Shown here piece by piece: positions 6,885-53,620 of a stretch of DNA of 64,000 nt. Where the stretch lies: the NCBI GenBank assembly GCA_050084515.1, contig CM114271.1, positions 11,594,001-11,658,000 on the forward strand, in the 5' to 3' direction. Position 1 is the first letter of the stretch. Every line of letters begins with the position of its first letter. The notes under the pieces are model-generated. The model saw nothing but the letters and a program-made list of their open reading frames with translations. It searched no databases and was not told the DNA's origin. The position numbers and the translations under genes were made by a program. The stretch comes from Blasia pusilla (lineage: Eukaryota).

Positions 6885-9800
6885 CTATTCATCTTGACTA
6901 TCTGAGCTACTATTTTGCTCCTTCTCATCCTCAAATGTATGAGCCTCATACAGTCCTTCATCTCCATCCTCTATACTAATGGTAGTGTAGTCCATATTCG
7001 CTAGTGCTATTTCTGCATCTGATAGTTGTATTGCCCCAACCAGGGTTACGTTAGGAACTTCACTCTCTAGTTGTGTATGAGCATCAAACCCTCTAGGTTG
7101 CAAGCTATCATTTCTTGATAAGTCTACACTCTCCCCCACTACCCGTCTTGATCGTGCTTCTTTTTGCATAACAACTTTCCATCCTAGCCTATCTTCTACA
7201 TCTCCATAAAATACTTGCTCTACTTGGCTAGGAAAAACAAAAGGATCAGAATTCAAGGGCAGGAATTTTCTAAAGTTGGCTAGTAGGAAACCATTCTCAT
7301 CATAAAGCATGTTGGGTTCTCGGGAGCCCCATGTAGATTGAACCCATTTTCCCCTCATCAAGATAATGGGTTGCTCTAACCGGCCATAATCCATAACTAA
7401 AATATCATACAAGAGGCCAACATAAGGCATGTGATGATTTGCAATGGCTTCCTCCGACGGATGAGATTCAAAGATTGATGCAATCCCCGAATCAAAGGTT
7501 GTGTAATCACTTCCATCATCTACCCTAAAATGGTTTCCATAAGCTTTCATCTTTTTGTATGACAAGTAAAACCGAGAAGGTGGGATCGACAATTTTACAA
7601 CCATATCATCAATGGCATGGCCGAAAGCTATCCATTCTATAATCTTTGGACGGATCCACTGAGAGAATGTGGAATCCCCATTGCCCTCCTCTCTGAACTT
7701 TCTGCACAATAACCAGCGATGACAAACTTTTAAAAACCAACACCTTCCATTAACTACAAAAGGTAGTTATTTCTTTCTGGACAAATAATATGATTCGATA
7801 CAAATAGAAAGGCTAGAAGGAAACTAGATGGAAAGAATTTACATAACACTAGTACTTACTCCAACCATACTGTGAAACATTCACTATTGTGGAGCACATA
7901 TGCATGTGTCACTTCAAGAATTTCAGAGCTCATTTGACGCTTGGTCCCGGCATCTTCTAACACCTCGCCAATAACTCCTTCATCCTCGCTCGCATCCCAA
8001 ACTCTTGTTTGTATGACATCATAGTTTTGCATGTATTCGGTGATGAAACCAAGAGCTTCATCAAGTAGATATCCTTCAGCCATACAGCCTTCTAGTCTAG
8101 CACGTGATCTGACATAATTCTTCAATACACCCAAATATCTCTCCACAAGGTACATCCACCGATATGGAACACGGCCACAAATATCAAGCTCTTCAACCAA
8201 ATGGACAAGGAGGTGAGTCATCACGTCAAAGAAGGAAGGGGGAAAGTGTATCTCCATGAGGCAAAGCGTGGTAGAAATGTCCTCTTTTAAGGATTCAAAA
8301 TCCTCATGGTTGTATGTCTTCACACAAAGGCGTTGGAAAATTGTGGAGATGCGCATGATAGTCATCTTGACTGGGCTTTTCAGGAGTCCACGCAAAAAGA
8401 ATGGTAAGAGTTGTTGCATAAAAATATGATGGTCATGGGACTTAAGTGCACCCACATTCTTCCGTAGAAGATGTTTCTGTAAAGCGCCAGCATAACCGCT
8501 AGGAACTTTTAGACTTTGTACCCTAGCGTCAAATATCTTAATCTCCTCAGGGGTAAGCACGTAATCTGCCTTTGGTTTTAACTTGACGGATGATCTACTA
8601 GGATGCCCTTGAAGCCACAAGTGATGCCTAATTCCCCTAACCTCCATGTCTTGCCTAACTTGAACCGAGTCCTTGTTTTTCATACCAAACAAGGTTTTCA
8701 ACATATTGTTCGCAACATTTTTTTCACAATGCATAATGTCAAGGGTATGACGGATCAATAAATCTTGAAAAATTATCAAGAAGGAATAGTGTGAATTTCG
8801 GGTTCATCCATGCACTCAACAAAGAAACCAGTAGGTGATCAAACCAACACAATTACCACAAGAAATGGAAAGTGTGGAAAAGTATGAAAAAATGCAAACA
8901 TCTTCAATAGGTTTTACTCACCTTCCAATAAGGCAGCTCGAATAGAATGCTCTTTCGTTGGACCCCATACACTTTGTAGGGATCAACCATCCTCTGCTCA
9001 CCCCTCTTGTGCCTAGGTCTTGGCGTTTCATCAAATATCTTCTTCATTTCAGCCCATCTCAATATGTCATGACTGGTCACGCGCTTGGGCCTTGGACAAT
9101 TTTCAATATGTCGATTGAAAAGATGCGCAAATTGGATCTTCCTGTAAGGATGATTCCTATCTTTATACCGTCGGTGGCCTTGAAATGTTGGCTTATGCAA
9201 AGGTTTAGAATAATATGAATCTACTTGTGGTCCACACACCACGCATGCCAGTTTTCCCTTGGTACATTGGCCAGAGACCACACCTAGCCCAAGATAGTCA
9301 CTAATAGTGCATATGATCATGGCTCTAAGAAGGAACTTATCTTGGCCTTCAGGAAGAGAACTATCATATGCAACAACTCCTTTCCAAAGTAGTTGAAACT
9401 CGTTTACAAGTAGGGCTAAATACACATCTAAGTTATGAGAAGACACTGACTCCTTACCATGAATGATCAAAGCCAATTGGAGAAAGAATTTCTTTGTACA
9501 CAACCATGGTGGAAGATTGTAGTTCACCAAAATAACAGGCCAAGTTGACCAAACTAAACTCTTTTCCCTAAAAGGATTTACTCCATCTAAAGCGAGCCCT
9601 AATCGACACTTACGAGGCTCGTTCATGAACTCTGGCCAACGCTCATCTATATCTTTCCACTGTCGACAATCTCCAGCATGACGCACTTTACCATCGCTAC
9701 TTTTGTTTTCTGATGTCCATTTCATTAGTTCAGCTATGGTCTTACATCTATACATACGTTGTAGCCAAGGGATAATTGGAAAGTGTCTGAGAACCTTTAC

Positions 9801-10098
9801 ATCAATCTTTGTTTTCCCTTGCACCTTATATCGAGGGGAGTTGCACTTTGAGCAATTCAACAAGTCCTTATGCTCTCCATTGAAGAGCATACAACCATTG
9901 GGACAACAATGAATTTGAATATAATTCAAACCCAACTTATTGATCAATGTTTTTGCATCATAGTGGTTTCTTGGAACCACATTCTCATTGGGCATGACTT
10001 GCAATGCCAGGAATTTTAGGATCTCATCCACATCAATATTTGAGACATTGTGAGTACCACATATGTTTAAGAACAACATGGTGAATGCAAGTTTGCAA
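6885..10098 (-). CDS. tnpD: CACTA TnpD transposase (Transposase_21 + DUF4218 + DUF4216-type segments), 3 exons, N-terminus missing
   Basis: IHCCPNGCMLF, LRHFPIIPWLQRMY, RLGLALDGVNPF, STWPVILVNYNLPPW, SILFELPYW | RHTLDIMHCEKNV, LKSHDHH, FPPSFFDVMTHLLVHL, RWMYLVERY | PFVFPSQVEQVFY; GT donors at 8921 and 7859. Confidence 0.92.
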
Positions 10099-10500
10099 GG
10101 TGCGGTAAGAGGAGAGGAAGAGAGAAAGAGAGGAGAGAGGAGAGAGGAAACTACCTTCAACCGAAATAGATACTTTTTTTTTAAGAGAGTTTCCGTTGGG
10201 TTGAAGAGAGGAAACTTTTTGTGTGAATTTTTTTGCACTTTTTTGTTCATTTATTAAACAATCCCATAGTTTTTTTTTCCTCTTCCATATTTTGGCAACC
10301 CCTTTGAGTCGGACGAGTTGCAAATTGCACAAAATTTACAAAACTGAGAAATCAATGGAATCATAAGTGTGGAACCAATCACTTTTTCCATCCAAGGTTT
10401 GGAAAAAATCTATCATTTGCCCCGGGCTGAATAGAGTTCAAGCTCACAGTGAAGGTTGAGAAAAAAATAAAAGTACAATCTAAAACCTCATGTTGCATCC

Positions 10501-13500
10501 TCAAAGTGGTTTGTTTAAAATACTTCGAACTTCTTTGAGGGACGAATTGGTTGGTGGATTCCTACTCCTACCTCCGACTCTCTTAAAACTACCAAAGAAC
10601 ACATAGTACATGTGCTTACAAGGGAAATACCTTTTGCCACTTGTCTCTCTTTGGACAAAGTCATCACATGAACATGTGGGAAAGCAACAGATGTGCACCA
10701 CATACACCCCTCTGACACTTGAATTTACAGTGTTGTTCGTGACCCAATACATCCTTCCTATTTCATTGCCACTCAGGACATCTTTCGTGGCAATGATCTC
10801 CATTTTTGCCTCCCGAGTGCTTTGCAATTTGTTTTGCTCTCTCCACCGTTGGCCTACACATCTTTGTTTCTCTTCACCCCATTTCTAGACTCAAACAGAA
10901 ATAATGGATTGAGATCATCCACCTTCTCCGGTACATGTTGACATCAATCTCGGGTTGAATACAAAATGCGAAGGTCTCTGAATGCGAACATGCTCCAAAC
11001 TTCCCCGTCTCACGAGTTTGAAACCGGCACTTGTAAGATTGTCCACCGCCTTGAGTGCGTTCGTACTGCTCATGCAATGGGCCAAATCGTGAGGGTATTC
11101 CCTGGAGCTCCAATGGCAGCGGATAAGACTTCCGAAAGCGCAAGATTCATTTGGGCGAAGATGTACTTCAATTGATCGGTCCTCGTGAAACGATCAAAGG
11201 TTTTGAGTCCCCAAAACCAGGCAATGGTCGTCGATCCCTTGTACGATTCTTAGGAAAGTGCCGCATGCTCTCCTAATGCCATCGATTCTACGCCTGCAGG
11301 TGGGTCCACGCCCAGGGTTGCTCCGAGATATATGCCACCGTTTTAGGTTGCAATCCACCTCCATTACCGGAATCCCATATTGTTGAACCACCCCAGTGAC
11401 ATGATGTTGCGAACTTCCAGCAACGGAGGGCTTTTGAAATAAAACATTCATTGATTTTGGAGAAGTAACTCCATCACGGATTTGGGACGGGTCCGGGGTC
11501 CTCGAATACCTGGGCGGTGTAATTTCCTCATCCAAATCAATCACCGGATTTGTTCCTCGATGTCGCCTCTTCACCGCTCAAGTCAAGATACTTATCTGGT
11601 CTCCACGAGTCTCGTTCGGACTGCTCTACCACCATCTGTATGGGACGTCTTGAAACCCGCCCATGAATATCCCCACCTATGTGTACGTCTTGCTCGAGTG
11701 GAGTTCCAGCTACGCACCGGTTGAAGGCTTCGACATACAATTTTTCATCACCAGATCTCACGGCCATACGACATAGAGCTCGTAGATCGACGACCCTTTT
11801 CCTTTTGTTATGCCTTTTGTGAGGAAGATATGGGATGCTGCAGACTGTAGCATTGCTCTTGCCTGGTCTTGTTGGCATGCCTCCACAAGTGAAATTCGTT
11901 GGCATGCTTGTGACGACCTCCAAGAGGAATGAACACTTTCTGCTCCACTTGTGTTGGGGCAGAGGGCATTTTCATGAACGTTCAATCCCTGCAACGACGG
12001 AAATGTTAGAAGGGAACGAAAATAACCCAGGAGTCAAAGAAATAAGCAACCTGTCGGAACTAGACGGGTTGCAGGCCCGAGGCATCCCATGAACGACTCT
12101 GCGACCCCTCGGGTCCCGACGTGTTGTAACCTTAAACCCACATGCTGCAACCCGTCGGAACCTGACGGGTTGCAAGGCCGAGGCATCCCATGAACGACTC
12201 TGTGACCGGTCGGGTCCCGAATGGTTGCACACTCGGGACGACACCAGACATCTGGATGCAACCCGTCGGTTTCCGTCGGGTTGCACCCTTGGGCAACTCG
12301 TTGGTTTCCGTCGGGTTGCCCGAGTGTGCAACCCGTCGGTTTCCGTCGGGTTGCACACTCGGGCAACCCGTGGCATCCGACAGCTTGCTTGGTTTCTTGG
12401 GTTTGAAATCCATATAATTCCCACGCTTCTCACCCTGAGCTACAACTTTACAAAAAATTCTCAGCGTGAGCTTGACAAGACAAAATAGTGAACTCACCTG
12501 CCGCATGAAGTTTCCCCATTGTCTCATACGTACAGTCCACCAACTCAACCAAGAGCACAACTCTTTGTACTTCCCCTCAATTGCATGCTTCCTCCACCAC
12601 CCATGAAGTTCTTCCTGGCAGTCCATGGCCTGCTTCAAGGTTTTGTTGTCCTTGCATCGTTGGAGTAGAGTGACATGCTCTGTCCTCTTATTCTCCTTGC
12701 TGCAAGATTTGGTGTACCGGGTCACAGACTGTTGCCAATGGAAAGCATCCGACCTTTCCCTCTCCAGTTGAACCTCTCCATCCCATAACACTTCCCGGAT
12801 AGCAATCCACCCAGGTTGTGCATTTTCCGCCATGAACCCATAAATTTCCGGAGGTGGCCTTTTGTTTTCCTTCACCACCTCCAATAAGAGTAACCAGCAC
12901 ATCTTCAAACTGCCAACGTCTTCTGCCTTTACTTCACACACAAATATAGTTTTGAGTCCCTTCTCCACATGGTCATAAACGTGAGCACCCATCGTCAACC
13001 ATCCGTTCAGCACTCTATAGCAAATATCAAAGTTGACCCAGCTCCCGTAAAAATCTTCTCCTTCCCTCATTCGATCTATAAGATCGAGGCCACTCGAGGG
13101 ACCTGTGGTTGACATTTTGAAGACATAGGCCCTGGATCCCTCGCCTCCTTGGCCCATGAACTGCCATCTCTGAATGAATGGAAATCTGGAGTTGGCCTTG
13201 ATTCTGGCGATGGCATCCATTTCGGCCGTCTTTCCATCCGTAACTCGATCGTCGACGCAAACAAATTCGGAAGCATTCAGGATCAGCGAGAAATGCGAGA
13301 TTTTCCCAGAGTTGTTTCTCCTCAACCGCCGTGATCTCGCCCTGTCCAGGGATTCCAAGCAATTGTTCACAAATTTGTGATGCCGTTGTGAGCTTGATCA
13401 CCCCGGGCTTTGAACCCGGAGAGTTTCTGAAGACCTCGGCTACTTTCTTGGCCACATCCTCCTTGATGTGTCTTTGAATTGCATCGGTCACAGGATGAGT

Positions 13501-14475
13501 GTGGGAGCCAACATGAACTGCCAGCCTTGTATACTCTGACGTGGAGCCCAAGTCATGGACAATGAAAAATATGTATGCAAGACACGCTCCAATGCAGAAG
13601 GGCGACGCTTGACAATGAGGACATCGATGGCCTCCCGGCGGTATTGTGGCACCCACCTCGTATGGAGTTTCTGCATTCTTGGGGGGGAATTGCGACGTAT
13701 TGACTCACCCGTTGCGCTCTAGATACGGGCATGCTGGACTTCTACACTCCAAGGCTCCCACGCATTGGCGGCGGGAGACAATCCAAGGACCATCTGGGAT
13801 GGAAGCACTGGTCCGTTGAAGCCTGCACCATCGATGACAATCAGACTTTCTGTCCATACCCTTCAGGCGTCCTCCATCCTTCTTTTGAGCAAGAGCAGCA
13901 AGTGGAGGCAACTCAAAAATGCAATTACCATCGTACGTGGGCGGCACCTCGTCGACAAGAATGTGCTTGAACATTTTCAAGGGCAGAGACGAAAGCAAAC
14001 TATTGCCTGATACTCGCAAGAGGAACGAGTAGGCGGACACAGGGCCCGATTGGTGTCCGACAGATCCGCTGAGGTTGATAACATCCGGGATCTCTTCAGG
14101 AAGAACAACGTTGTTACGAGTGTGCAAAGTTGGAGTCGAAGCCGGATCTGCAGAGCTTGGAGTTGCAAACGTAGAGCTCGGAGCACTAGGAAATTCTAGA
14201 CCGTCTATTTGGGAAACAAACGAATTCAGGGGCAGGCCGTAAACTCTGTATTGACCATTTGCAACAGGTAGGAGATTCCATACTTTACGGTCTGAGGTCA
14301 CTGGCTGGACCGTCTCACCTATTATGTCTTCCGTACCTTCCATCCTAACATCTTTGGATACAAAGATGGTTCCAATTTGAAGAAGAGATCGAACAGACAG
14401 AAAATTTTCATCCACTACTACGAAAGACTCACGAGCTTGGGGTCGAATGATTTCTGATTGAGGAAGGGCCGCCAA
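10501..14475 (-). pseudogene. MULE/Mutator-type DDE transposase with N-terminal GCM/WRKY-like Zn finger and C-terminal SWIM finger (frameshifted)
   Basis: CVGALECRSPAC..CPHC..HVGSHTHP (13490-13765); VNFDICYRV, GFMAENAQ, RSDAFHWQQS (12730-13040); GT-AG intron 12497-11989 joins QWGNFMRQ to GLNVHENALCPNTSGAESVHSSW (third catalytic E); SWIM CSCDDF..PCKHMYYV (10600-10680). Confidence 0.8.
12045..12385. repeat. Palindrome array in the transposase intron
   Basis: Repeated GCAACCCGTCGG-N3-CCG(A/T)CGGGTTGC units inside intron 11989-12497. Confidence 0.9.
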
Positions 14476-14764
14476 GTGAGCTTAACATAATTATCCATTC
14501 CAAGAAGATTCCTACGGGAGGAGACTGAGAATGAGAATGAGAATGAGAATATTTAATTTATAGTGAATAGGAAACAGATACTCCTGACAGATTTTTACTG
14601 ACAAGATGAATTCGGTGGGGGAGATTGTCTGACACAATGGATCCAATTTTGTAACACATTCAATTGTGTTGCAATATGTTACCGGATTTGGGAAGAAGAG
14701 GGTTGCGCATCACTTGGAACCCATCGGAGTCCTGGTAACTCAGAAATTACCCGAAGCTTACCGA

Positions 14765-15432
14765 AGCCTGCAACACGTCGGCATCGGACGGGTTGCAAGC
14801 TTCTGCTAAACATTGTCGAAGCGAGCAACCCGTCGCTCTCCGACGACTTGCTGGGATACCGCTCCTTCTTGCTTGAAGATGCCGGAGGCGTGCAAACCGT
14901 CTGTTCCCGACGAGTTCCACGGGTGCCTCGCCTTTTAGCCCAAAGACGGCGAGGCGTGCAACCCGTCGCCGTCCAACGGGTTGCGCAAGGGCGTCGCCTT
15001 GTGGTGCAGCCAGCCAGACTCCGACGACTTGCACGGGAAGCCATCGTTCCTAACCCTTGATGAGGGAAGCGCACCCAACAGCTCTCGACGGATTGCCCAA
15101 AATACGTCCCGTTCCCGTCCCAAACATGGCGGAGGCGCGCAACATGTCGGTCTCCGACGGCTTGCGCGGGTACCTCGCGTTGTTTTCCGAAGACCACGGA
15201 GGCGCTCAACCCGTCGGTCTTCGACGGGTTGCTCGCGCACATGGCGATGTTCGCAGGATGGCGGAGGCGCGCAACATGTCGGTCTCCGACGGGTTGCGCG
15301 GGTACCTCGCGTTCTTTTCCGAAGACGACGGAGGCGCTCAACCCGTCGGTCTCCGACGGGTTGCTCTCGCACGTGGCGACGTACCCAGGATGGTGGAGCC
15401 GCGCAACTTGTCGGACTCCGACGGGTTGCAAT
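14765..15432. repeat. Palindrome array in the divergent intergenic region, including a 132-bp tandem duplication
   Basis: For example CAACCCGTCGG-TCT-CCGACGGGTTG at 15339-15363; tandem units start at 15126 and 15258. Confidence 0.9.
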
Positions 15433-15518
15433 TTTTCACGTCCGGACTTCCGTAACATTTGGCACGTCGCCGTCGAAAGGACGACGGGACCCAACGGTCA
15501 GCCCAACGGCTAGAAAAG

Positions 15519-15526
15519 TATAAATA
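15519..15526 (+). promoter_or_regulatory. Candidate TATA box of the ParB-MTase gene
   Basis: TATAAATA just downstream of the array, ~280 bp upstream of ATG 15803. Confidence 0.45.
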
Positions 15527-17009
15527 GGGCAGAAATCGCTCATTTCCGGTTTCTCATTTTGCAATCTTCATTCCTCACTCCTCACTCTCCGCGCAAGCAG
15601 CCTGATCGATATCTGAAGGGGCATTTCACGCGGCGACACATCGCGAGTCGATAGGAGGGAACGAGAGCGAGACGGTTCGACCGAGCAATATGGGGACGAT
15701 TCGAGCTAACCATCAAGGCGAGACGAGCTCCCATCTCGACATCAGCAAGGCGACTGATCAAGGGATTTGTCATGGACATAGGTGGAGGCATTTCCGGCAA
15801 AAATGACGAGGAAAAAAACACAAGCCAACAAGTCTGGGAGCTTCACTCCCAAGTCCATTAGGACTCCTGCATCAGCTTCTCCTGGGCCTCGTTCGGCAAA
15901 TGAAATTAGGCAGCAAGAAATCGAGGATCGGGAAAGGGAAGCGGAGATGCACAACCAAGTGCTTCTGGCGAGACGTGTTCAAGCGGCGCTGGATAAACAT
16001 AACGAAGAGGCCGAGACGTCGCAGGCCTTGAAGAAAAGGATCGCCGACGAAAAGAGAGAAAAGAAGCGTCTAGACGCGTCGGTGAGGAGGGCAAAATTGG
16101 CTAAAGCGAGGCGGGAAAAAGCGATAGCCATTGACGATAGCCCAGCCCGTCCAACCGCAAGTGTTGAGATGTGGGAAATGTCCCCCACGAATTCCGGGGA
16201 CACAATCAACATAGTGGAAACAACACCAGTTCAAATTGATGACGACGAGGTCATGAGGACCGCCAGCGTGGAGATGGTGGACATGGCCAAAGAAGCCGGA
16301 GAGCGGTCATTCTCGACTCCAAGCCCGGCGGAGGACATTGACCTCTATCGAATCAACGAGTTCCCAGTCGATTTTCCAGCCCCTGTCTCAGACAAGTTAG
16401 CTGGTCAAGAAACCGACTCCATTTTCGAGCGGGTAAGAGAGGTTCTGGGTTTTTTTAATTATGTGAATTGCAATTCATTGGGATTTCAGTGTAGCTTATT
16501 CCTCTTGTCCTGGTTCGACGGTGGTAAAGCAGATGGCACTCATGGAGGGCCACAACGCCCGAGGATTCCACTCTGCCGACAGGACAATGGAATACGTCCC
16601 GCGAAATCTGATCCGGCGAGGACATCGCAAAGCTAAAACAATCGCGGCGACAAAGATCCCACGTGGGACGGACTTTCCTCCCTTCTATGTTCAGCCTTAC
16701 GACGAGCATGGAACCCAAGCTCAGTTATCGAGGAGGACTTGGAAAATCTCGACACATCTCGGAGGATGCGAGACCAGGACTTGAAGGCAAGTTGAGGGCA
16801 CGGAATTCAGCTGGATGAGGAATCGCATTTCTTCATCTCTGGGGATGGAAATCACAGTTCATGGCGTGGACCAAGTTTGCGGAGAAGCGCCACAACTCAT
16901 TGAGGCACATTTTGCGTGAAGGCGGTGGTCCTTCACCCATACCCTCATCACATGGCGACGGTGGAGATGGCAATGCATGCCATGAACACGTGAGTATCTT
17001 TAACATTTT

Positions 17010-17968
17010 CGCAACTCGTCGGACTCCGGACGAGTTGCTCGATTGATGAATGGGTTAGGTTTTTTAGCGAAAGCAACTCGTCGGACTCCGACGGGTTGCT
17101 AGATTGCACGCTTTTCCGGATGTTTTTTTAAGATTGCAACTCGTCGGACTCCGACGACTTGTTTGATGGAACATAGATTTAACTAGTTTTTGGCCCAAAG
17201 CAAACCGCCGAGTCGGACGGGTTGCTCGACAAAGTCGCATTGTGAGGATGTTTTTGAAGAGTCAACTCGTCGGACTCGAGCGACTTGTTTGATTGAACAT
17301 AGATTTAAGTAGTTTTGGCCCAAAGCAAACCGTGAGTCCGGCGGGTTGCTCGATAGGTCGCCTTGTGAGGTTGTTTTTAAGAATGCAACTTGTCGGACTC
17401 GACGAGTTGCTCGAGGATCGCAGGTTTAGAAGGTTTTGCCCCAAAGCAACCCGCCGAGTCCGACGAGTTGCTTGCCTCAAACGCTTTTGGCGAAATCAAC
17501 CCGCGGACTCCGGACGGGTTGATATGGGGAAAAATAGTTGAGGCAAGCAACCCGTCGGACTCGGACGACGGGTTGCTTTGGGGAAAAACCTTCTAAACCT
17601 GCAGATCCTCGAGCAACTCGTCGAGTCCGACGAAGTTGCATTCTTAAAAAACTCACAAGGCGTTAATCAGCAACCCGCCGGACTCACGGTTTGCTTTGGG
17701 CCAAAAACTAGTTAAATCTATGTTCAATCAAACAAGTCGTCGGAGTCCGACGAGTTGCAATCTTAAAAAAACATCCGAGAAAGCGTGCAGTCCAGCAACC
17801 CATCGGAGTCCGACAAGTTGCTTACCTGGCATTAGCAAATGTGAATGCAAACCGTCGGACTCCGATGGGTTGCATCATTTAGCTTGTTGCTAGAATCCGA
17901 CCCTGATCTGTGACGACCCGTCGGAGTCCGAAGGGTTGCAAGAACCCATGTAACTTCCTGACGGGTTG
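17010..17968. repeat. Palindrome array forming a long foldback inside intron 16990-17983
   Basis: ~17075-17505 is reverse-complementary to ~17515-17825, e.g. GGTTTAGAAGGTTTT/AAAACCTTCTAAACC and ACATAGATTTAACTAGTTTTTGGCCCAAAGCAAACC/GGTTTGCTTTGGGCCAAAAACTAGTTAAATCTATGT. Confidence 0.9.
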
Positions 17969-20074
17969 AGTTTGGATGTGCAGGATTGTATCAGAGGGGA
18001 ATGTCACCCACCATTGGATCCAGGACTGCGATCGGGTGAGGAAGGTGCTTACGACGACCGGGAGAGTCTGAGGGGTTCTTGGGCGATGCCCTCGTCAATC
18101 AGATGCTTGCAAAGGGTGCTTAGATTAAGAAGAAAACTTGGGCAAACAAGTTTATTTCTCAAGATGCAGCCGTAACCATCCTTTGATGGTCGAAGATACA
18201 GGCCGCGAAGAAAAGCGCTGCATTGGAGCTGGAGCGGAGGGAGAAGGTATCTGCGTCTGGCGCGCTAAATTCATCAGCTGCCAGATCTGCTGCAACAAAA
18301 TACACGGCGAGCAAGATGCGGCGATACATCAAGCATTCTCAACCCCGATCTTGGTCCGGAGTTCTACAAGGAGCTCAAGGCGATTATCAAGCGTCGGCCG
18401 AAGAGGGATGAAGATCCGCATGGTCCGATTGGGAGAAAGTGTCGCCAGATCGCGTGCATCGTTTTGCGTTATCCGGGATTAGCGATTCAGGAGGATACGA
18501 TCGATGAAAATCGATCTCGAGGGCTCAGAGGCCAGAAGAGGGCGGCACACCATCCTCCGGGTGTGTCCGATCCAATGATCTCGCATTGGCTACGCGAATG
18601 GTCGTTCTGGGACGCGTTGCGGGTAATCGGGAAGTCCGCGGCCGACCGGCAAGCCGGAGCTCGGAAGATTAGAGCCCATTCGGCCGGAAGCAAACCTTGA
18701 AAGTTCCGAGATTACGAGGTTTGGCTCGACGACATCCGGGACAAGCCAACCAAGAACCCTGGATTCAAGACCATGTTCAAGGTTTGCGTCCTCCCTCAGG
18801 CAGAGCTTGACGAAGAAGTAGAGGGTAACAAACGGGATCAAGCGAAGAAGAAGCGAGATCTACAGGAGCAGACGGCCGATAATGTTCGACTAAAAGCTGC
18901 CCAACGGATGGTATTCATGTACCTCGTCCAGTGTAAGAACGCACGTACGTGGGGAAAATTACCGGTAGCCTTGAAATTGTGGGCATCACCGCCGGATGCA
19001 GAGACATTCTCCATGTACGACGTGGAGATGGGTCAGCACATGTCGGATTGGGAGGTGGAGAATTGCCCCATTTGGCTCGACTTCAACAACCCTGAAGACA
19101 TCACGGATAAGGACTTACGAGTGCCTCATGATGATGCAAAGGGCTGAGGATAAGACGACATCCCCAATTCGTCCCGGCCTGAAGACTTCTTGGAGGAGAT
19201 GAAGAGTAGGCCCACGAGGCAGTGAGTTGGCTTCCAAGGTCCGGATAGCCAAAGACAAATCCACAGCGGGTCTCAAAGGCAAGGCGAGGGAGGGAAAATT
19301 CAGAGGCCGAGACTTCCCAAAGAGAGCCTAAAGATGAGAGGCCGAGGCGGAATCGTCGGACGAGCGAGGGAGAGAGGGTCGGACCAGGTCCTCGGCGAAG
19401 AAAACGCCACCAGAATCTGAGGTCATAGAAACCCCGACAAGCCGTCCCCATACTAGGGAGAAGCGGAAGCGAGAGGTGCCCGGGTTGTCCCAAGGAGAAT
19501 ACAGCCCATCATCCTTGGGAAGACACAGACAAACAACGACCGGACAAGCGTGCTCCTTGTTCACCTCTTTCTTGGATGAGAGCGACTTCAATTCTCAGCG
19601 TTGACAACTGCCATCGAAAAATTGACAACGCTGGGACGGAAGCTCCAACGAAACGGGCACGCTGCCTGGACGGTGAATGGAGTGGTCGAAGAGGTTGCGA
19701 TGGATCTCTTGATCGCCGATCTGCCCTCGGGGTTGCGACTTTGGGGCGAAAATCCGGCGGACGAGGTACCTGAGTGGAATCTGCCGCTCACTTATGACCA
19801 GATTGCACTTTTGTTCTCTTTGCGCACGCCTATCCGAGTGACAGGGGCTGCTTCTTGGTGTTGACTGGAGGGAGCAAGGAAGAGCTCTTCAACCTCCAGT
19901 GCGTCAAGAGGTCGCTAAAGTGGAGGACGGCACAATCGTGGATCATCAAAAACGAGTACCCACTCCGATCCGCGACGAGTCAGATTCGGGTAAGGCTCAA
20001 TTCCTGTACAATAATTTCAATTATCTTATAATGATGTGTAGAATGAGAGTCAATCTGGGTTTTTTTTGTCCGTG

Positions 20075-20450
20075 AGCAACCCGTCGGAAGGCGACGGGTT
20101 GCTGGCTTAGAGCAGCCCATGCTCGGCTGAGAGCAACCCGTCGGTTTCCGACGGGTTGCATCTTTCCCACATACACAGGGAAAACCGCGGTGTACCTGCA
20201 ACCCGTCGGAACCCGACGGGTTGCAGTTGATTTTGGTTTTTGGATGCAACCCGTCTAATAGCGACGGGTTGCTATCAGACGGGTTGCTCTCAGGCGAGCA
20301 TGGGCTGGTCTAGGCCAGCAACCCGTCGCCTTCCGACGGGTTGCATCCGAAAACCAAAATCAACTTGGAAAACCCAAAAGCAACTGCAACCCGTCGGGTT
20401 CCGACGGGTTGGTCCGGGACAAAACAACCCGTCGGACTCCGACAGGTTGA
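20075..20450. repeat. Palindrome array with nested inverted repeats in the intron splitting the MTase domain
   Basis: Perfect GCAACCCGTCGG-TTT-CCGACGGGTTGC at 20133-20159; 20076-20142 is inverted relative to 20278-20345. Confidence 0.9.
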
Positions 20451-22769
20451 TCCAAAGTCAGTTATTGAAAATCTTCTCAAGGCGACTTCTTTAGTTTCTG
20501 ACATTGTTTCGTCTTTGATTCTGGATGGACCACTCCTACGTGTCGCCGTTCGCCCGAGCACAATTTCCAGGTGTTCAAGATCCAGGATCCTGTGGATCCA
20601 TGCTCAGATGGGTACAGCTTAGATAGTTTGTACAATTCCCCCCCGGGAATTTACATGCAAGATAGTACCCCGCAGGAGGAAGGAAAAGTCGTCGCCACCA
20701 CGATGCAACGCTCATCGAGCTCTGCTCAAGGCCGGGTGACTTGGTGTTCGACTTAGTGGGCCTTTCGGGGCGAGTATCGAGGCGCTGGCGAGTGGCGGGA
20801 ACATTCTCGCCTCGAGGGAAGACAGAATCGTTTGACCTTTGCAAGGAGGCAAAGGCGAATCGAAAGGCTCGTTGGGGCGTACAACTCTCCACGAAGCCGA
20901 GAGCTCCGGTTCGAGCCACCCTTGGTAGTGACTCCATCGTCACTTCCAACGATTCCCAAAATCGGGAGGGCAAGGCGAAAGTGATTTTGCAAGAGCTCTC
21001 GGACGATGACGAGTGAGTTCAAAGAACTCAACGACCAGCTTGATGCACTGCGTTTGGAGTAGGGAGTTTTTGATAATTTGGCAAAAGATTTCATAGAATA
21101 GATCAAATGTACAATTCGAGCTTTTTTCGGATGATATAAAGCGAGAAGATTTTTTCGATCGATGGTGGTGCTTGTAAATGTTTTTGATCATTTTGTCTTT
21201 TCGAATGTGATCGTCTATGTACTCCACGGTCTTCTACTTTGCAACCCGTCGGATTTCTCCTGCTTGCAATTTTCACTTTATGACCACCGCAACCCGTAGG
21301 ATTTCTCCTCCTTGCAACTTTTCGCTTTTGACCATCTGGACCCTTTTACCACCTCCAGGCAACTGCGATTCGACCAGTTGCTCGATCGACCCTTTCGGAT
21401 CAGCGATCTGGCGGGCTTCTTCCTTGGCACCTTCCCCTCAACTCGTAAAGGCGGCGAGGCTTCTTTTCTTCTCTCAGGCGTGTTGGATTCCTTCTACTGT
21501 GCGGTTGCCATAGTGGTATTACCGGGGCGGAGCAGATATTGATATTGGATGGGTGTCACATTGCGGAGCGTACAAGGTATCTTTGCCGAGGAAGGCGGTG
21601 GGACTCGAGACAGTTACATGGGACCGTTATGGTGTACCTAGGGGGGCCAAGGCTCTCGAGTCGCCAACATTTTCGATCCCCGTCTACAATCGGCCGGAGG
21701 AGCCACTTGAATCCCAAGACATTCCTTTGGTACATCACCGAGGAGAGTTAGGAGTAAATTTGTAGATGACGAGGTGAAGAAATCATAGACTAGGTTCAAT
21801 GTACATTTCGAGGTTCCTTCGGAGGTAATAAGGACGAGATTTTTCAACCCATAATGGTGTTTGTAAAAGTTTTCTAGAATATGTTTTTGGACTTGTGGAT
21901 TGTGTTCTTTTAGCTACTCGAATTACAATTACGCAACCCGTATGATTCGACTTTTTGCTTTTTGTCCACCGCAACTTTTTAACCATTTCAGGCAACCTCT
22001 CGGATTCCGACAGGTTGATTGCTTGAGTGATCGGACTCTATCCGGTGAGACCAACCGGCGCATTGTGGCGGGCTTCTTGACTTTTGGCTCGTTCCCTTCA
22101 TTCGTCCAACCGGTTGTAGGCTTCTTTTCTTGTCTAAGATGTGCAAGATTCCTACTACCTGTCGGATTGCCATTTCGGATTCCCAACCCGTTAGATCGTC
22201 GTGGGTGCAGGGTGGAAGAAAATCACTTCTAAAAATCTTTCGTTTCTTATGGTGAGCTTTCTTACGGGTTGGGAGGTGCGACTTCTCGGTTTGAGCCTAG
22301 GATCTGATTTTTCACATTTCAAAAAGTTGGTCTTGAGCAGACACCATTCATAACCGACAGAAAGTTGGTTATGGGGCAATTTAGGGGAGGCCATGATGCA
22401 AGCAACAATCCCTGCAAAAAGAGAGGTACCCATCCGGGTGTTCCTCCAACAAAAATACCAAGGGCACTGCTTTTTGTTGACCGATACAGGGAATGTTAAG
22501 AAACTTAGGCTCACATGGACAGTGATGGAAAAATGTTTAGGGTGGTCTTATGATGTCTCCTTTTTTCTCACCCCCAGGAAAGAGGAGGCTTTTTTAGGGC
22601 CAAATGTGGACCACTACCTACTCTCTTCTAAAGATCTCCTGAATTTGAAAGCAAACGAAAATTTCAAATATGTCAAAAAGTTTTGAAGAGAGGAGGCGGA
22701 TTTGGCCCTTTTTTTTGAAGAGAGACACTCCTCTCTTACTCTCTCTTGCCAGAATACCAACCCCCGACA

Positions 22770-23674
22770 GGATGGTGCTAGAAATTATCTGCAAGTAAAG
22801 AAAGGGAAAACTCTTCACAAAGAAAAGGATGATGGTAGTGAGGAAGATGTCAGTCACGGCAAGAGAAGAGAACGTGGACCCGTTTCTTCCAAATTTCAAG
22901 GTCGGGCTCCTAGCCATGACCGGCACAACAAGCCCGACCTTCACGATTCAAGGCGATCAACATCTAGTCATCATGGTTGCAACTATCAGGTTCAAGCTCC
23001 GCGCGCCAGTTGTGATTCTTACAGTGATGCCCGACGCAATGGAGATTACGATCATCCGGCACTTGATGAGACACGAGTCTCGACAGAGGATACTGAGGGA
23101 CGAGATAGAGACAAGGGCAGAGAAAGAGATAGAGAAACGAGAAAGGGAAGCGAAAGAGAAAGAAGGAACGAGGATCGAGAAAGAGATACCGAATTAGCGC
23201 CAAAGGTAAAATTGGAGTTAGGGAGTCCAACATTGACAAAGATATGGGCAGGGAAGGGAGAATTGAGAGAGATAAGAGCAAGGAAAGAGAACGTGAAAAA
23301 GGAAGAGAACAAGGCAGGAGTAGGTTGAAAGGGAGGGACTTCTTTGACAAGGATAAGGACATGGAGAGGAGGAATGGAGGTGGTCAGAGCAGAGACGGCT
23401 ACAGAGATAGAGATAGAGATAGAGACAGGGAAAATGAAAGGAACAGAAGTAGGTACACCTCTAGAGATTCCAGCAATCACAAAGAGGTGGATTCAGGAGA
23501 TGGACGAGGGAGGAGCAAAGACAAAGAGAGAGTGAGAGACAAATTCCAGTCCAAAGCGGGAGCTAAAAGTTATCCATACTTGGATGGAGAAGAGAAAGAT
23601 GTGATTCATGACAAAGAGAAAGAACGAGAGAAAACTGGAGACAAGCCTTCAGGCAAAGAAATCCTTGTCGACAA
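22770..23674 (+). pseudogene. Arg/Asp/Glu/Lys-rich host-gene-like exon, 5' part (interrupted by the gypsy element)
   Basis: RDRDRDRDRENERNRSR-type low-complexity ORFs; reading frame rejoins 33358 onward once the insertion and TSD are removed (…EILVDNDLHMEKEN…). Confidence 0.6.
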
Positions 23675-27970: not shown

Positions 27971-28299
27971 TTATTTACGGGGCTCGACCATGAGGGTCTT
28001 CCCCATGTGTTAGCATCTGTGGTGGTTTTAGTGGAGTAGTCACTTGGCCAGAGACTTTTTGGAGGTAATGTTTTCGCTATGGATTCTCCTGCATGAGGAG
28101 GTAGAGGAGGTCCCTATTTTTGCAGTGGCATCCTCATCGTTGGATGTGCCACTTTGGAGTTCGAGGCGGTGCACTACGGCAGAGGCGTCGCCTAGTGCAG
28201 GAGGCTTGGTGTGAGGCTGTTATACCTCACGAGGAAGAGGAGGCCCCACGGCGGACTCCTACTTCTGGTCCAGTTGGGTTATCCCCTTTGGATACTACA

Positions 28300-29275
28300 C
28301 CCATTGTATGGCAGTATCCGCCGGAGGGTATTTGTGTGTTAGATCTCTTTGGTGGGATTAGCACTGGTTTGGCTGTAGTGTTGCAGGCCGGTATTCCTGT
28401 GCGGAGATACGTGTATGTGGAGCGAGATGAGACGGCCCAGAGAGTCTCATCTCGACATATTGGTCAGTTGATGCGGAGATACCCTGAGTTGTTGCCGCCA
28501 TCAGCTATTCGTGGGTACCAGCGTGCTTTACCATCACACATTGCATTGTTGGGGGTGCAGGACCTTGAGAGAATTGGTCCTGTGGATTTGGTGATTGCTG
28601 GATGGCCATGTCAGGGTCATACACATGCTAGTCGTGGTGAGGGATTACATGACCCTAGGTCTCGATTGTTTTGGGAGATGTTACGGATGTTCGACATCTT
28701 GAGTTCATCAGCACATGCTCTAGCTTACATTCGGAGAATGTTCCATTGTTAGGTGACACTCGGACCCGGATTATGGCGAGTGTTCATCAGTGCGGTCTTG
28801 GATTGGACCAGCGGTGTTGTTGGATGCTGGCCATGAGTTGGCTCGCGTGCACATCGTCGAGCTTGTGGTGGACAAACTTGTTGCCTAGGAGGTTCTCGTC
28901 GAGCATATGATGCGGTCTGGCGGGATCCTCGCCTTATAAAGTGGATAGTATCTTGAATCTTGGCGACTTTCTCAAGTGGTGAGGGTTATTGATCGGTCAC
29001 CCATGGCGGTGGTGAACGGTGTGGGCGACCTAGGATGGCACTACCCACATTTGTGAGTTTTTCAGCGTCACATGCCTCTGAGGAAGGTGGTCGGGGCTTG
29101 TATGGGATTCTCATGTGCGGCGGTTGGTGTTAACGCCGATGAGAGAGAGAGCGCGATGGGATTTGCTCTTTTGGTGTGACATGGTTGCTTCTATTTACGA
29201 GGCTTCACAACGTCATGTGTTGGGTCACGCCATGGACCTGAATTGTTTGACTTGGATTTTGAGTCTTGGTATGGC
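28300..29275 (+). pseudogene. C5 cytosine DNA methyltransferase domain (Dnmt3-like) within pol
   Basis: Motif I VLDLFGG, II YVERD, IV DLVIAGWPCQG, VI ENV, VIII (R)xRLWWTN, IX ERERAMG-like, X LGHAMD; several frameshifts. Confidence 0.9.
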
Positions 29276-29739
29276 GAGCGGCGTCGACCGGACTATGTCG
29301 TGGGTCTTCCACCCCTTGTAATGAGCTCGATGGCTCCGGGATGGTAGAGGCATCGGTGGGCGAGGAGAGTAGTATTTTGCATCCTTGGAGTAAATGGGAT
29401 GTAATGGCTGGGCATGTGGAGTTGGTTGCTCATGGTGGTGGAGGAGTTATTTGCTCAGATGATGGTGTAGCTAAGGGTGTACCATCTTGTGAGGGGGTTG
29501 CATAGCAGCCAATGGCATCGTCCTCTCCCTCTAGTGTGCCAGTGGAGGAGACTTGGGAGCCATTACTTGGGCCCAAGCTTACGGGAGGTGAGAAACGACG
29601 CTTGACACAGTTCCTACGTGCTTATAGGAGTTGTTTTGCCTTTAGCATGAAGGAGTTGGGTTCCCTGGTTGGACCGGTATACGGATTGATTTGGCTAGTG
29701 ATACGCCAATCTTCCGTCGTCCCTACCGATATAGTGATA

Positions 29740-30975
29740 TGGAGAGGGAGTTGATTGAGTAGGGCGTTGGACCTTTTGGAGGTGGATTAGTGGAGTTGTC
29801 GCATGGAGAGTATGCATCGCCCTTGTCATGCTGCTAAAAAAGGATATGCATGGCAACTACGGATAGGCGGATGTGTGGAGATTCTTGTCTATCAATCGGC
29901 AAACCAAGGCCGATAGGTATGCCATGCCTACACCGAGGAGATCTTTGATGTGGTGGGACAGGCAAAGATTTTCAGTACTTTGGATCTTCGGGCACGATAC
30001 CATCAATTTGATTCGGGAGAGTGACAAGGCCAAAGACAACATTTTGGGGAGTCAACTCTCATGGCAAGGATTGTTTGTACATGTGGAAATTCTTACCCTT
30101 TGGGTTGAAGAATGCACTGCCGAGTTTCAAAGAGTGATGGTCTGGATCCTAGCAGGGTTGGATTTTGTTCGGTGTTACATTGATGATATCTTGGTGTTCA
30201 GTAACACGGTGGAGGAGCATCAGATACATTTGCAGATGGTGTTTGAGCGGTTGAAAGCTCATGGTCTACGTTTGCATCTAGGAAAGTGTAAGTTCTTCCA
30301 TGAGGATGTTGAGTACTTGGGTCATGTGATCTATCCAGGTGGTTTGGGAGTTCAGCAAGCAAAGGTGGAGGCTATTGCACTTATTCCGCATCCGGTAGAT
30401 GTGAGTAGAGTTCGAGCATTCATGGGATTGGCGAACTACTATCGGAGGTATGTGAAGGGATTTAGTGCTATGGCAAAGCCTTTGAACCAATTGCTGAAAT
30501 CAGATCAAGAGTGGCATTGGGGAGATGATCAGGAGAGAGCTTTTGTGGAGCTTAAGGCCCAGTTGGTGGCGGCGCCTATCTTGAGGAGACCTATCAGAGG
30601 GCGCCCATTCAAGTTACACACCGATTGGAGTAGGTTGGGACTTGGAGCGGTGTTGACACAACACGATGATGAGCACATCGAGTTTGTGGTGGCCTATGCA
30701 AGTCGTTCGAATAATGCAAAAATGAGTCGTGCTATAGTTCATATGAGGGAGAGTGCTTGGCGAGTAGTGTGGTGTGGCACACTTTAGGTGTTACTTGTTT
30801 GGCACCCAGTTTTACCCTTTTCTTGATCACCAACCGCTCAAGTGGTTGATGGAGTCGGACAAGCTTACGAGGGGAAGCTTGCACGGTGGGCTCTTATCTT
30901 ACGGGAGTATGACTTCCGGGTGGTACATAGACCGGAGTTGCCAACCTTGATCTTTGATGGGTTGAGTAGGAACCC
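29740..30975 (+). pseudogene. pol: Reverse transcriptase + RNase H
   Basis: YIDDILVFS, LHLGKCKFF..VEYLGH, VRAFMGLANYYRRYV, LHTDWSRLGLGAVL, VAYASRS, DHQPL, ARWALIL.EYDF. Confidence 0.93.
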
Positions 30976-33357: not shown

Positions 33358-34119
33358 CGATTTACATATGGAGAAGGAAAATAATCTGACCAAGAACAAA
33401 GATTCCGGTAGAGATGGAGAGAGAGAGGGGGCTGACGACCGAGGAGTTCGAGAGTGCAGTGTCTCAGACTTAGACAAAGATAAGGCCTCCAGAGATTGGG
33501 ATGACGACAAGGGTCAAGATCGCCGGAAAGGACAGGATCGGTACTCTGAGGGGGTTGATCGAGAGCAGAAATTGAAAGACAGTAAAGATACTGTCCGGCC
33601 TAAAGATAGGAATGAACAGAAGGAACAAGATGGTCCTAGGGACAAAGCTAAATGTAGAGACAGAGATCTGTAGATTGAGAAAGATGAGTTGGGAACCGCT
33701 AGTGAGCTCTCTAAAGTCAAGTATCGGCAGGAGAAGATCAGCAGCGGGAACAAAGTGAAAGATGGGGGAAATAGTGTTCCAAGGGACAGAGTTCAAGGGA
33801 AAGACAGACGATCCGAGGAAAGACAACGTGACAATGAAAAGATTCCGCATAGTCCCGTTGTGGCAAATGATCACGGAGTGAAAAGGAGCCAATTGAGCAC
33901 GAAGGAGTGTGATGGTGATGGAAACTCAAAGTTAGAGACAAGGGATGGAGAAAGTAGAAGCGATTGGAAGGTCAGCAAGGGAGATATGGAGAGTGCAGGG
34001 CAGAGGGCACGTTTATCTGGTTTTTCTAGTGATTCAGAAAAGAAGTTGCCAAGTTCATCTAATGGTAAAGTTACAAAAGAGTCAAAGTGGGGTCCTCAGG
34101 CATCAGATTCTGCCATTGT

Positions 34120-34120
<1 letters not shown>
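33358..34120 (+). pseudogene. Continuation of the R/D/E/K-rich host-like exon, truncated at ~34120
   Basis: In frame with the 5' part; contains one stop (33671) and ends …ESKWGPQASDSAIVES where a repeat unit begins. Confidence 0.55.
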
Positions 34121-34592
<472 letters not shown>

Positions 34593-35170
34593 AACACTTC
34601 CAATGAAGCAACGGTGGTTATGCCAAGCTAGTTGAACACAAGGAATAGATTAGCACATTGTATTCTGCATTGGCAATACCAAAAACTGATCAAACAACGA
34701 TTGATAAACGCAACAGAAGAATATTTGCAGAGTACGACACAAAGCGGGACTCATCTTTTTATTCAGTATCAACAAGTGACAAAGTGGATAGGCGTGCTGA
34801 GAATGAACAGCTAGTAGAGGCGACCATAAGAAGTATAAGGACAAAGCTCACCCGAGTTTGACGACTTCGACTAGCAAAATGGAGATGCACAAAGGTGATT
34901 GCACATTCACAAGAGTAAGCAACCAAAAGTTGATTGGGAGCGCTAAGAAGGCAAACTCTTGGCAGAAGCTGATTGATCGCCCGCACAACATCTTACAACC
35001 AAGCAGCAAAAGAACATACTATGAATTGAGAGTAAGAGAGCTTGACGACAAGAACTAATTGAGCGGGAAAAAGGAAGGCGGTGTGGACTGAGATGGAAAG
35101 GAAATAACGCAAGATCGTAGAGTTGTTGTAACAACTTCTTCATTGCTAACTAGAAGCGCACCTGATCTGA

Positions 35171-35542
<372 letters not shown>

Positions 35543-52413: not shown

Positions 52414-53620
52414 TCACACTACCACTATTACTGGCCTTAATCCCGAATTTACATCATCTACACCTAATACTTTCGCATTTGCTCTGATATATGCAATAAG
52501 ATACTCTAAGCTTTTGCAATTAGAGGGATTTGGAGCTAATGCCTTATTTTGAATCCTTTCCAAATAGGTAAATCTCACATTCACTTGGGCATTCCCTACA
52601 GCGAGGTTGTATGTCACATAGTTCAAATTCGTCACAATCATTCTTAGGGCATAGATTTCAGTGGCCTTTCTAAAAGGAAGATTCTTAGGGCCTACTCTTA
52701 ACTCCAATGTTATATGCCCAACATGATTTTTTGTTCATGCTGCCACCATCTATGAGGTGACTCTAAGATTTCATCAGTCCATATGGCATTTCCCAATCTC
52801 CAACGCCGATGTATGGGTTAGAGTTGGATCCCAAATGGATGAAAATGTTCCTAGCATGGAGGCCCGCATGAAAAAACCCACGCTTGTTGACACTCTCCAT
52901 GGTACCAAGAAGGGAAACCACAAGTTGGACGACATTTGATGCTATTGCGAGACATCTCATCTTTTCCAACTCTCCTAGACTAGCCCCGTCGTTCTTCAAG
53001 GCATGGCATGCTCGCAGCCATTTTTCAAGGTGCTCACCATTCCAATATGGATAGATGGCACGAGGTGGATCCTCGATCAACCTTCCCACCATGCAAACAA
53101 CACCGCGATGTAAAATACTCACAAACAACTCATCGCGCATCATTGATTTTCTAGAACATGATAGAGATGATTCCTTATACACCTTCATGCAATAGTACAT
53201 ATCTTCATTAAAGCCATGGAAACCCTTTATTTTACAACGGTACCCAATTTCGGGTAAACTGGTTGCCACAATATCGCTTGGATCATCTCCTACTACTACT
53301 TTATTGTCAGAAATCAATGTTATTGCATATGGAATTGTCAATGTCACCCCCACAATAGTACTACGTCCCTTGAAAAGACGTTGAGCACTTCTTAACTCTT
53401 CACCGAATCTTTATAGGAGAGCCCACTTAGCAAAATTCAGCTTCTCATCCTTATATATCTTGAGATCGACATATGCTCTCTCAAGGTTAACACCTTGTTG
53501 GGCATAAAATTTAGTCCTATCAGCCTCCGCGACATCCACTTCCCAGTTAAATGTCTTTGCCACTCTCTTGGACAATCTTAGCAATTCCAAGGTCTACTCA
53601 TGGAAACCATCCATACCCCT
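52414..53620 (-). pseudogene. Degenerate protein kinase-like gene, probably TE-borne
   Basis: GFFHAGLHARNIFIH (HxDLHxxN with D lost), IGVGDWE (DFG position), ELR..ATEIYAL; frameshift near 52750. Confidence 0.6.

Follow-up and report, generated by a model that had tools for sequence, protein, structure and literature searches.

What kind of gene lies between positions 15803 and 21016 on the plus strand of a 64,000-nt stretch of DNA from Blasia pusilla (contig CM114271.1 of assembly GCA_050084515.1)? The whole stretch, to which all coordinates refer, is called the window here; it has the character of a plant nuclear genome and is rich in mobile elements. The original prediction had seen at this locus a transposon-borne gene in which a ParB/Srx-like domain is joined to a beta-class amino-methyltransferase. 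On balance, the locus is best explained as a decayed copy of a gene from an abundant family, which would be the second gene of a Mutator-like transposon and would encode a C-terminal, circularly permuted methyltransferase-like domain that is likely to be non-canonical. A ParB/Srx domain could not be demonstrated.

A decayed gene spread over three reading frames

The strings on which the original prediction was based are all present on the plus strand between 15803 and 21016, scattered over three frames, and the ends that it gave to the gene, an ATG at 15803 and a TGA at 21014-21016, are both correct. Its view that a real, multi-exon-looking gene is present here, invisible in any single open reading frame (ORF), is borne out.

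From the ATG a first coding block extends to 16432, encoding a charged, K/E-rich N-terminal region within ORF 15782-16636 that has no family match in Pfam, NCBIfam or PHROGs. A putative GT..AG intron of 57 nt (16433-16489) separates this block from the stretch previously called ParB/Srx (16490-16990), the pieces of which lie in three frames and which is followed by a donor-like GTGAGT at 16991. The central domain (18335-19117) is contained in ORF 18269-19147, which is open apart from one in-frame TGA at 18698-18700. The N-terminal half of the methyltransferase-like domain (19613-19992) has motif IV in the form DLPS followed by the motif V-VIII region. IEKLTTL, DLLIADLPSG and EWN are found in ORF 19580-19864 and SDRGCFLVL in ORF 19798-20031, which overlaps the former in a different frame, the frame changing between 19780 and 19822. 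This half ends at a donor-like GTAAGG (19993), at the start of an inferred intron (19993-20689) that holds an array of hairpins at 20060-20450. ORF 20502-20756 may form part of the last exon. The C-terminal half (20690-21016) holds motif X-I; here ORF 20666-21016 carries LIELCSRPGDLVFDL and LIELCSRPGDLVFDLVGLSG and terminates at the TGA at 21014-21016, while ASIEALASG.NIL (20770-20832) lies in the third frame and the reading frame is broken near 20700, 20768 and 20833.

With its in-frame stop and several frame breaks, the copy at 15803-21016 is a pseudogene. The intact gene would have a length of roughly 900-1000 codons, and its protein would consist of three parts: a charged N-terminus, a central and probably helical domain, and a C-terminal domain resembling the permuted (beta-class, 'Group-1') amino-methyltransferases.

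A conserved family shared with a liverwort

A HMMER search of 1,835,955,588 representative proteins with the translation of ORF 18269-19147, reading the TGA as X, gave one match at E ≤ 0.001 (E 3.9e-10). This was R1sor_013312, a 488-residue hypothetical protein of the liverwort Riccia sorocarpa and the sole member of its cluster. When this protein was compared with the window by tblastn, residues 38-281 aligned to 18335-19117 (E 5e-16), and residues 357-413 and 427-485 aligned in two frames to 19613-19780 and 19822-19992, respectively (E 2e-12). These placements indicate that a single protein is encoded by the central ORF together with the block that holds the putative motif IV, and the gene at 15803-21016 represents a real, conserved family shared with a liverwort.

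The two proteins have in common the central domain, the N-terminal half of the methyltransferase-like domain with DLP[ST]..RLW..VPEWN, and the motif P[LM]RSAT.Q. The best-conserved block in their alignment is DLL.xDLP[ST]xxRLWxxNxxxxVPEWN, which contains the putative motif IV. R1sor_013312 differs in being only about 30-35% identical, in being annotated as uninterrupted, and in lacking both the N-terminal region and the exon with motif X-I. It ends four residues past the position of the donor-like GTAAGG in the window, and the Riccia gene model probably runs into an intron at its end.

Further relatives were not found in the collections searched. A homologue search with the last exon, restricted to longer proteins, gave none, and a search with R1sor_013312 returned only itself. 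Scans of metagenomes with peptides from the window gave 51 pattern matches and a scan of a viral collection with R1sor_013312 gave 18, of which none was confirmed in either case. A degenerate DNA pattern for NCPIW[IL]DF was found at 24 metagenomic loci, all due to chance as judged by tblastn. Among the listed datasets containing the stretch at this locus, none is on record as RNA.

A remote methyltransferase-like domain at the C-terminus

To compare the C-terminal domain with known proteins, a collection of N6_N4 methyltransferases was begun from E. coli YhdJ, for which a homologue search gave only close orthologues. Comparison of the window/R1sor_013312 alignment with this YhdJ family using hhalign matched 14 columns at motif IV with an E-value of 0.22. 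From the 80 viral loci returned, 53 ORFs of at least 200 residues were kept (loci L029-L083), with PF01555 confirmed by Pfam in the 12 long viral ORFs checked, and eight phage ParB-methyltransferase fusions were added from the 11 of 38 viral records that have a ParB_N match.

The clearest signal came from hhalign. As query, the read-through of the window, with X at the frame breaks, was aligned with Riccia residues 341-488; the template was an alignment of 64 N6_N4 methyltransferases of phages and bacteria. Residues 41-119 of the query aligned to columns 133-208 of the template, covering motif IV-VI (score 24.9, E 0.011), where the features matched were idLIFADPPY followed by W, then Lk..Gs..v and then Gf. 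Residues 146-170 aligned to columns 294-318, covering motif X-I (II..sS..GDlVLDPF.GSGTT; score 28.0, E 0.0037). The two matches are collinear with motif IV-VI before motif X-I, which is the permuted order. In 150 column shuffles the top single score had a mean of 14.0 with a standard deviation of 2.4 and a maximum of 24.4, so that none reached 28.0, and none reached the sum of the collinear pair either (52.9 against a maximum of 37.7). Natural controls consisted of 143 ORF segments taken from 209 ORFs of at least 247 residues, after exclusion of 53 ORFs matching the methyltransferase hidden Markov model (HMM) at E ≤ 10 and of near-duplicates; their highest pair sum was 42.9, and again none reached 52.9. 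The placements were the same with the pieces left unjoined. Taken separately, Riccia 341-488 aligned to columns 133-224 (score 19.9), the raw ORF 19580-19864 to 134-167 (score 19.4) and the raw ORF 20666-21013 to 294-313 (score 31.1, E 3e-4). A phage MT-A70 protein, compared as a single sequence as matches to MT-A70 in two of the 38 viral records were too few for a profile, aligned best at motif IV (score 20.3). The leads from an Atlas feature search with R1sor_013312 residues 345-488 include clusters of MTS, UPF0020 and N6_N4_Mtase at scores of 0.86-0.91.

Several results weigh against this assignment. A Pfam search of 11 pieces of the window and R1sor_013312 at E ≤ 1 found no methyltransferase, and so the match to PF01555 that the original prediction had proposed as a check did not appear; nor was a methyltransferase match obtained from NCBIfam or PHROGs. 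Sequence searches of the PDB with phmmer gave nothing relevant, the nearest being motif I of a precorrin-6y methylase at E 0.28, and a profile search of the PDB found only designed coiled coils. An HMM built from 56 N6_N4 sequences gave the read-through of the window 1.3 bits over 14 residues, aligning only LIELCSRPGDLVFD to the stretch preceding motif I. The hhalign probabilities were below 10%, and as single matches, 28.0 was reached by 7 of the 143 natural controls and 31.1 by three. Structure prediction was of little help: the Atlas structural matches to methyltransferase clusters, with a TM score of about 0.5, carry little weight as the model has a pLDDT of 0.33, and an AlphaFold model of R1sor_013312 from a four-row alignment was unusable (pLDDT 39). 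In addition, since the R1sor_013312 model stops at the end of an exon, motif I is known only from the family in the window.

These points are what would be expected if the likeness were due to chance, the conserved block being an unrelated alpha/beta domain in an unknown transposon gene or a captured host gene. The motifs were, moreover, picked from a six-frame reading of 64 kb, which brings with it a problem of multiple testing. Against this, the three unjoined sequences each match the expected block of the template in the correct order, the pair sum was reached by none of the 293 controls, the putative motif IV falls within the best-conserved block of the two diverged proteins, and the Atlas leads point independently to amino-methyltransferase families. 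A chance resemblance is consequently rather doubtful, though it is the most serious of the alternatives. It would seem likely that the C-terminal domain belongs, as a very distant relative, among the circularly permuted amino-methyltransferases. For this part of the gene the strings picked out originally are thus above chance, and the beta-class arrangement, with motif IV before motif I, is supported as a remote similarity.

The motifs themselves depart from those of the known enzymes. Aligned to DPPY, motif IV reads DLPS in the window and DLPT in Riccia, neither of which conforms to the strand-4 consensus (D/N/S)PP(Y/F/W). The suggestion that DLPS reflects a catalytic alteration of this particular copy is not supported: with DLPT in the Riccia homologue, the absence of both the first proline and the aromatic residue is a conserved trait of the family rather than a lesion of the window copy. 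DLVGLSG aligns to the DPF.GSG of motif I; in the window copy the frame breaks directly after it, while in RNA reads from expressed paralogues, with the same species label, the frame is continuous.

An abundant and transcribed repeat

One DNA run (X1) and three RNA runs with the same species label were compared with 11900-22400 at a likeness of at least 90%. In the DNA run 90,351 short contigs match this 10.5 kb, corresponding to many genomic copies. The summed word depth, which is not equal to copy number, is about 1,500-30,000 over the gene at 15803-21016; for most of the neighbouring minus-strand gene it is 12,000-71,000, and at 14708-15409 it falls to a minimum of 189-465 compared with thousands on either side. 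The gene at 15803-21016 belongs to a massively repeated family.

The depth of RNA is low (0-6.6 per bin in the three runs), and most of the reads are only 90-95% alike (116/191, 209/274 and 147/236), from which it follows that they derive mainly from paralogues. Over 15400-21700 first mates fall mainly on the minus strand, and over 12250-13000 they are found on the plus strand, which for the usual stranded libraries implies sense transcription of both genes. No splice joint for the gene at 15803-21016, including the inferred intron 19993-20689, was seen among the 15 joints listed out of 20, and RNA reads cover part of this presumed intron. Loose read ends are present before 20707 and behind 20761, in 10-16 reads per run, pointing to an expressed paralogue with a different length at each of these sites. 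Its frame is continuous from ..EEGK.. via LIELCSRPGDLVFDLVGLSG into ..AS...

A short stretch, 21613-21645, is matched by 16-28 RNA reads per run that diverge on both sides of its 33 nt. It represents either a small conserved segment of a repeat that is expressed or a small exon belonging to a gene at another locus.

No demonstrable ParB/Srx domain

The N-terminal part of the original prediction fares less well. Read by eye, the stretch IPL..IRP..DP.EDI..L..PPFYV..DGNH.FMAW follows the order of Srx/ParB motifs, with RIPLCR near 16565 in frame 2, EDIAKLK near 16618 in frame 1, FYV near 16685 in frame 0, DGNH at 16844-16855 in frame 2 and FMAW at 16858-16869 in frame 1. This resemblance is at best a lead, and an unlikely one. 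The reading requires the frame to pass from 2 to 1, 0, 2 and 1 within about 310 nt, one further stop to be read through, and about 45 residues to be accommodated as an insert that separates PPFYV from DGNH. The arginine supplied to complete DGNH[R] is absent, there being only two bases between the codon for H and that for F.

Nor was there a profile signal for PF02195. The ORFs of the window have no ParB match in Pfam, and an HMM of ten phage ParB N-terminal domains gave the read-through -1.8 bits, the same as the raw frames. With hhalign the ParB score was 14.0-14.2, within the range of shuffled sequences (mean 11.9, standard deviation 2.5, maximum 21.2), and the alignment covered a different stretch (..KRHNSLRHILREGGGPSPI..) from the one proposed. 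When ten phage ParB proteins were compared with the window by tblastn at E ≤ 50, no hit at 16500-16900 was among the best 40 of 646 high-scoring segment pairs. In none of the tests run were the ParB-like strings above chance. Variation within the family is also informative here. In the family DNA, 3 nt are missing at 16839 in 2,052 of 5,082 depth and 2 nt are missing at 16840 in 1,298 of 4,559, and the 2-nt variant puts the frame straight into that of FMAW, so that the DGNH reading vanishes.

These results bear on the proposal of a spliced gene, derived from bacteria or phages, in which ParB is fused to a methyltransferase and which, as the cargo of a transposon, marks or protects the DNA of the element with N4-methylcytosine (4mC) or N6-methyladenine (6mA). 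The permuted order of the motifs agrees with this, fusions of the kind exist in phages (eight two-domain ORFs in the 38 viral records), and the two bases left behind the H codon may be all that remains of an arginine codon. Set against the failure of the ParB profiles, the variants at 16839 and 16840, a motif IV without its first proline and aromatic residue in both known members, and the lack of any relative in the viral and metagenomic collections scanned, the proposal as a whole is improbable.

A neighbouring transposase-like gene and shared hairpin units

On the minus strand, head-to-head with the gene at 15803-21016, lies a second decayed gene (10504-14481), which is probably a divergent Mutator-like element (MULE) transposase. 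ORFs 13705-14481 and 13027-13704 are in the same frame with one stop between them (13705-13707), ORF 12132-13397 overlaps in another frame, and further minus-strand ORFs follow downstream as far as 10504-10884. The protein would have an N-terminal part rich in Cys and His, a catalytic-like part encoded at 12497-13397 and, encoded at about 10600-10680, a SWIM-like CxC..CxH. Seven RNA reads with the joint 11987->12497, with CT..AC ends, support an intron at 11988-12496. In the Atlas feature search, the first match of the catalytic-like part scored 0.95, a value reached by shuffled proteins about once in 100, and the named families among the matches listed are all MULE or ZSWIM1-3 RNaseH-like. 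The MULE domain of Pfam (PF10551) was not found even at E ≤ 10. The SWIM finger (PF04434) was matched in ORF 10504-10884 with an E-value of 0.054 and 13.5 bits, below the threshold of 19.6; MULE transposases carry a SWIM finger at this C-terminal place. Taken together, the Atlas matches and the sub-threshold finger suggest a Mutator-like transposase, as a lead rather than a proof.

The two genes share a palindromic 27-nt unit, GCAACCCGTCGG-N3-CCGACGGGTTGC, which occurs 59 times where 0.43 would be expected. The units are found at 11970-22020, plus 1323 and 1593, with clusters that occupy the spacer separating the divergent genes (14680-15500), the intron of the transposase-like gene, and two gaps of the gene on the plus strand, 17010-17970 and 20060-20450. 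The array in the spacer is the only part of 11900-22400 with low depth in the DNA run. At 16991-17845 the units form a foldback of 855 nt (-376.6 kcal/mol, z -38.9), and in one DNA contig of the family 16990 is joined to 17846 with 13 other letters in place of the foldback. As the arrays are transcribed within the genes they could yield hairpin RNAs; no Rfam family was found at 10000-23000. The units could also be candidate binding sites for the product of the gene or for the transposase, although this is pure inference. The head-to-head order, together with the presence of one hairpin unit in the spacer and in the gaps of both genes, suggests that both belong to a Mutator-like DNA transposon, in which the gene at 15803-21016 would be the second.

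Two observations count against this assignment. Terminal inverted repeats (TIRs), CACTA-type or other, with a target-site duplication enclosing both genes were not found in the regions compared; the ends of the element may lie beyond these regions or be decayed. The summed depth over the transposase-like gene exceeds that over its neighbour by a factor of up to about ten, and so the two genes may not always travel together. The earlier description of the gene as transposon-borne holds in so far as it belongs to a highly repeated family beside a transposase-like gene; its carriage as cargo of a DNA transposon is putative. That a host gene, with the Riccia protein as its ordinary orthologue, was captured and amplified by a Pack-MULE-like element, its copies being dead passengers without a role, would fit the Riccia relative, which is annotated as an ordinary single gene and has a cluster to itself, the heavy decay of the window copy and the difference in depth, but is highly improbable given the same hairpin units in the gaps of both genes, the sense transcription of paralogues and the lack of any known host-like intact copy. 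The single annotated Riccia protein says little, since genes of transposons are often masked when genomes are annotated.

Two copies of a direct repeat, about 180 nt long and 79% identical, are present at 2016-2195 and 22600-22782, 20.6 kb apart, and might mark the ends of a larger composite element. A CACTA/En-Spm type transposase on the minus strand (6885-10250; three consecutive ORFs with Transposase_21 at E 1e-60, DUF4218 at E 1e-36 and DUF4216 at E 3e-4) adjoins the Mutator-like gene and is apparently separate from it.

Other features of the window

On the plus strand at 28105-30787 there is a decayed Ty3-like retroelement with a C5 cytosine methyltransferase-like ORF just upstream of its reverse transcriptase and RNase H. 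The methyltransferase-like ORF (28105-28752) has DLFGGIS at motif I, GWPCQG at motif IV and a match to PF00145 at E 1.3e-5, with an ENV-like motif in another frame at about 28730 (+). The reverse transcriptase and RNase H are encoded at 29867-30787 (RVT_1 7e-15, RT_RNaseH_2 3e-17). DNA methyltransferases (DNMTs) inside retrotransposons have been reported for dinoflagellates and charophytes, according to the part of PMC5890265 covered here.

A long simple repeat of the (GA/TC)n type is present at 34300-35600 and reads as ERERER.. or SLSLSL.. in ORFs 33674-34522 (+) and 35325-36104 (-). Strong GC skew extends over 24-36 kb. ORF 52763-53410 (-) has a weak match to a protein kinase (PK_Tyr_Ser-Thr, E 3.4e-5) and is possibly a fragment of a host gene.

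Discussion

The locus is a non-functional copy of a large gene from a very abundant family of elements, with its nearest protein relative in a liverwort. The assignment to the methyltransferases is one of remote similarity only, and the copy in the window is dead. Both known members of the family have DLP[S/T] as the motif of strand 4 and lack the aromatic residue that stacks on the flipped base, which makes it most likely that the domain is not a canonical N6-adenine/N4-cytosine (N6A/N4C) DNA methyltransferase. It would more likely be a module that binds S-adenosylmethionine (SAM) or nucleic acids and serves the element, a role of the kind that Iyer et al. (2016) propose for METTL14-type proteins and for the domain of DIRS1. 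That liverwort-type genomes contain an unrecognised clade of permuted amino-methyltransferases with DLP[S/T], encoded by the second gene of an abundant Mutator-like transposon, whose intact members would be enzymes acting on DNA or RNA, the element thereby writing a mark of its own, is a speculative and quite unlikely extension. If true, the unusual base methylation already known in liverworts would gain a layer encoded by a transposon.

Transposons with methyltransferase-like domains are already known, as in the DNMTs of retrotransposons and the inactive domain of DIRS1, and are seen as tampering with or mimicking the marks of the host. The present gene would be a further case: the second gene of a very abundant DNA transposon in a land-plant lineage, encoding a permuted amino-methyltransferase-like domain whose altered catalytic motif is conserved in two distant species. 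Should intact members bind SAM or nucleic acids, they would be candidate regulators on the side of the transposon, and should they be active, they would bear on the origin in liverworts of DNA marks other than 5-methylcytosine. No description of such a gene came up in a limited search of the literature, which is a thin basis for claiming that it is unpublished.

Comparison with known systems

Autonomous Mutator elements of the MuDR type have the mudrA transposase and a second, lineage-specific gene, mudrB, of unclear function. The window resembles these in having a transposase gene and a second gene, and differs in that the ends and TIRs were not found, the genes are head-to-head and the transposase is assigned from leads only. 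With the beta-class N6A/N4C methyltransferases of prokaryotes and phages (N6_N4_Mtase, for example YhdJ and the phage ParB-methyltransferase fusions) the domain shares the permuted order, the collinear hhalign matches and a spacing from motif IV to motif I of roughly 110-170 residues. The differences are the lack of a Pfam match, DLP[ST] in place of (D/S)PPY and DLVGLSG in place of DPF.GSG. The gene in the window also has no demonstrable ParB domain, has the look of an intron-containing gene and lies in a eukaryotic repeat.

MpDN4MT1a and MpDN4MT1b of Marchantia also come from a liverwort, and their motifs are arranged as in the prokaryotic amino-methyltransferases of the beta class. In the portion of Walker et al. 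(2021, 10.1101/2021.02.12.428880) drawn on here they are described as tandem host genes with a canonical TSPPY that are expressed in late spermiogenesis and make 4mC. The family in the window, with DLP[ST] rather than TSPPY and as a high-copy repeat, is set apart from them by this description rather than by comparison of the sequences.

Land plants show few N6A methyltransferases, according to the part of the survey by Iyer et al. (2016, PMC4738411) covered here; the transposon-linked cases listed there are DIRS1 and the Dam-like genes of Trichomonas, and none in that text is like the gene in the window. The MT-A70 clade (METTL14/Kar4 type) is also circularly permuted, and the motif IV stretch of the window is where the phage MT-A70 protein aligns as well. 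This comparison is based on one sequence, there is no Pfam match to MT-A70, and the motif X-I block of the window resembles that of the N6_N4 methyltransferases. Representatives of METTL14 often have disrupted active-site motifs and are described in the same part of the survey as likely to be inactive. The methyltransferase-like domain of the DIRS1 retrotransposon, for which that text reports substitution of the catalytic and substrate-binding residues and proposes a non-catalytic role, is likewise a transposon-borne, amino-methyltransferase-like domain with altered catalytic residues. It is of the PCIF1 (Group-2) type, as classified there, unpermuted and part of a retroelement polyprotein, whereas the domain in the window is permuted and stands beside a DNA-transposase-like gene.

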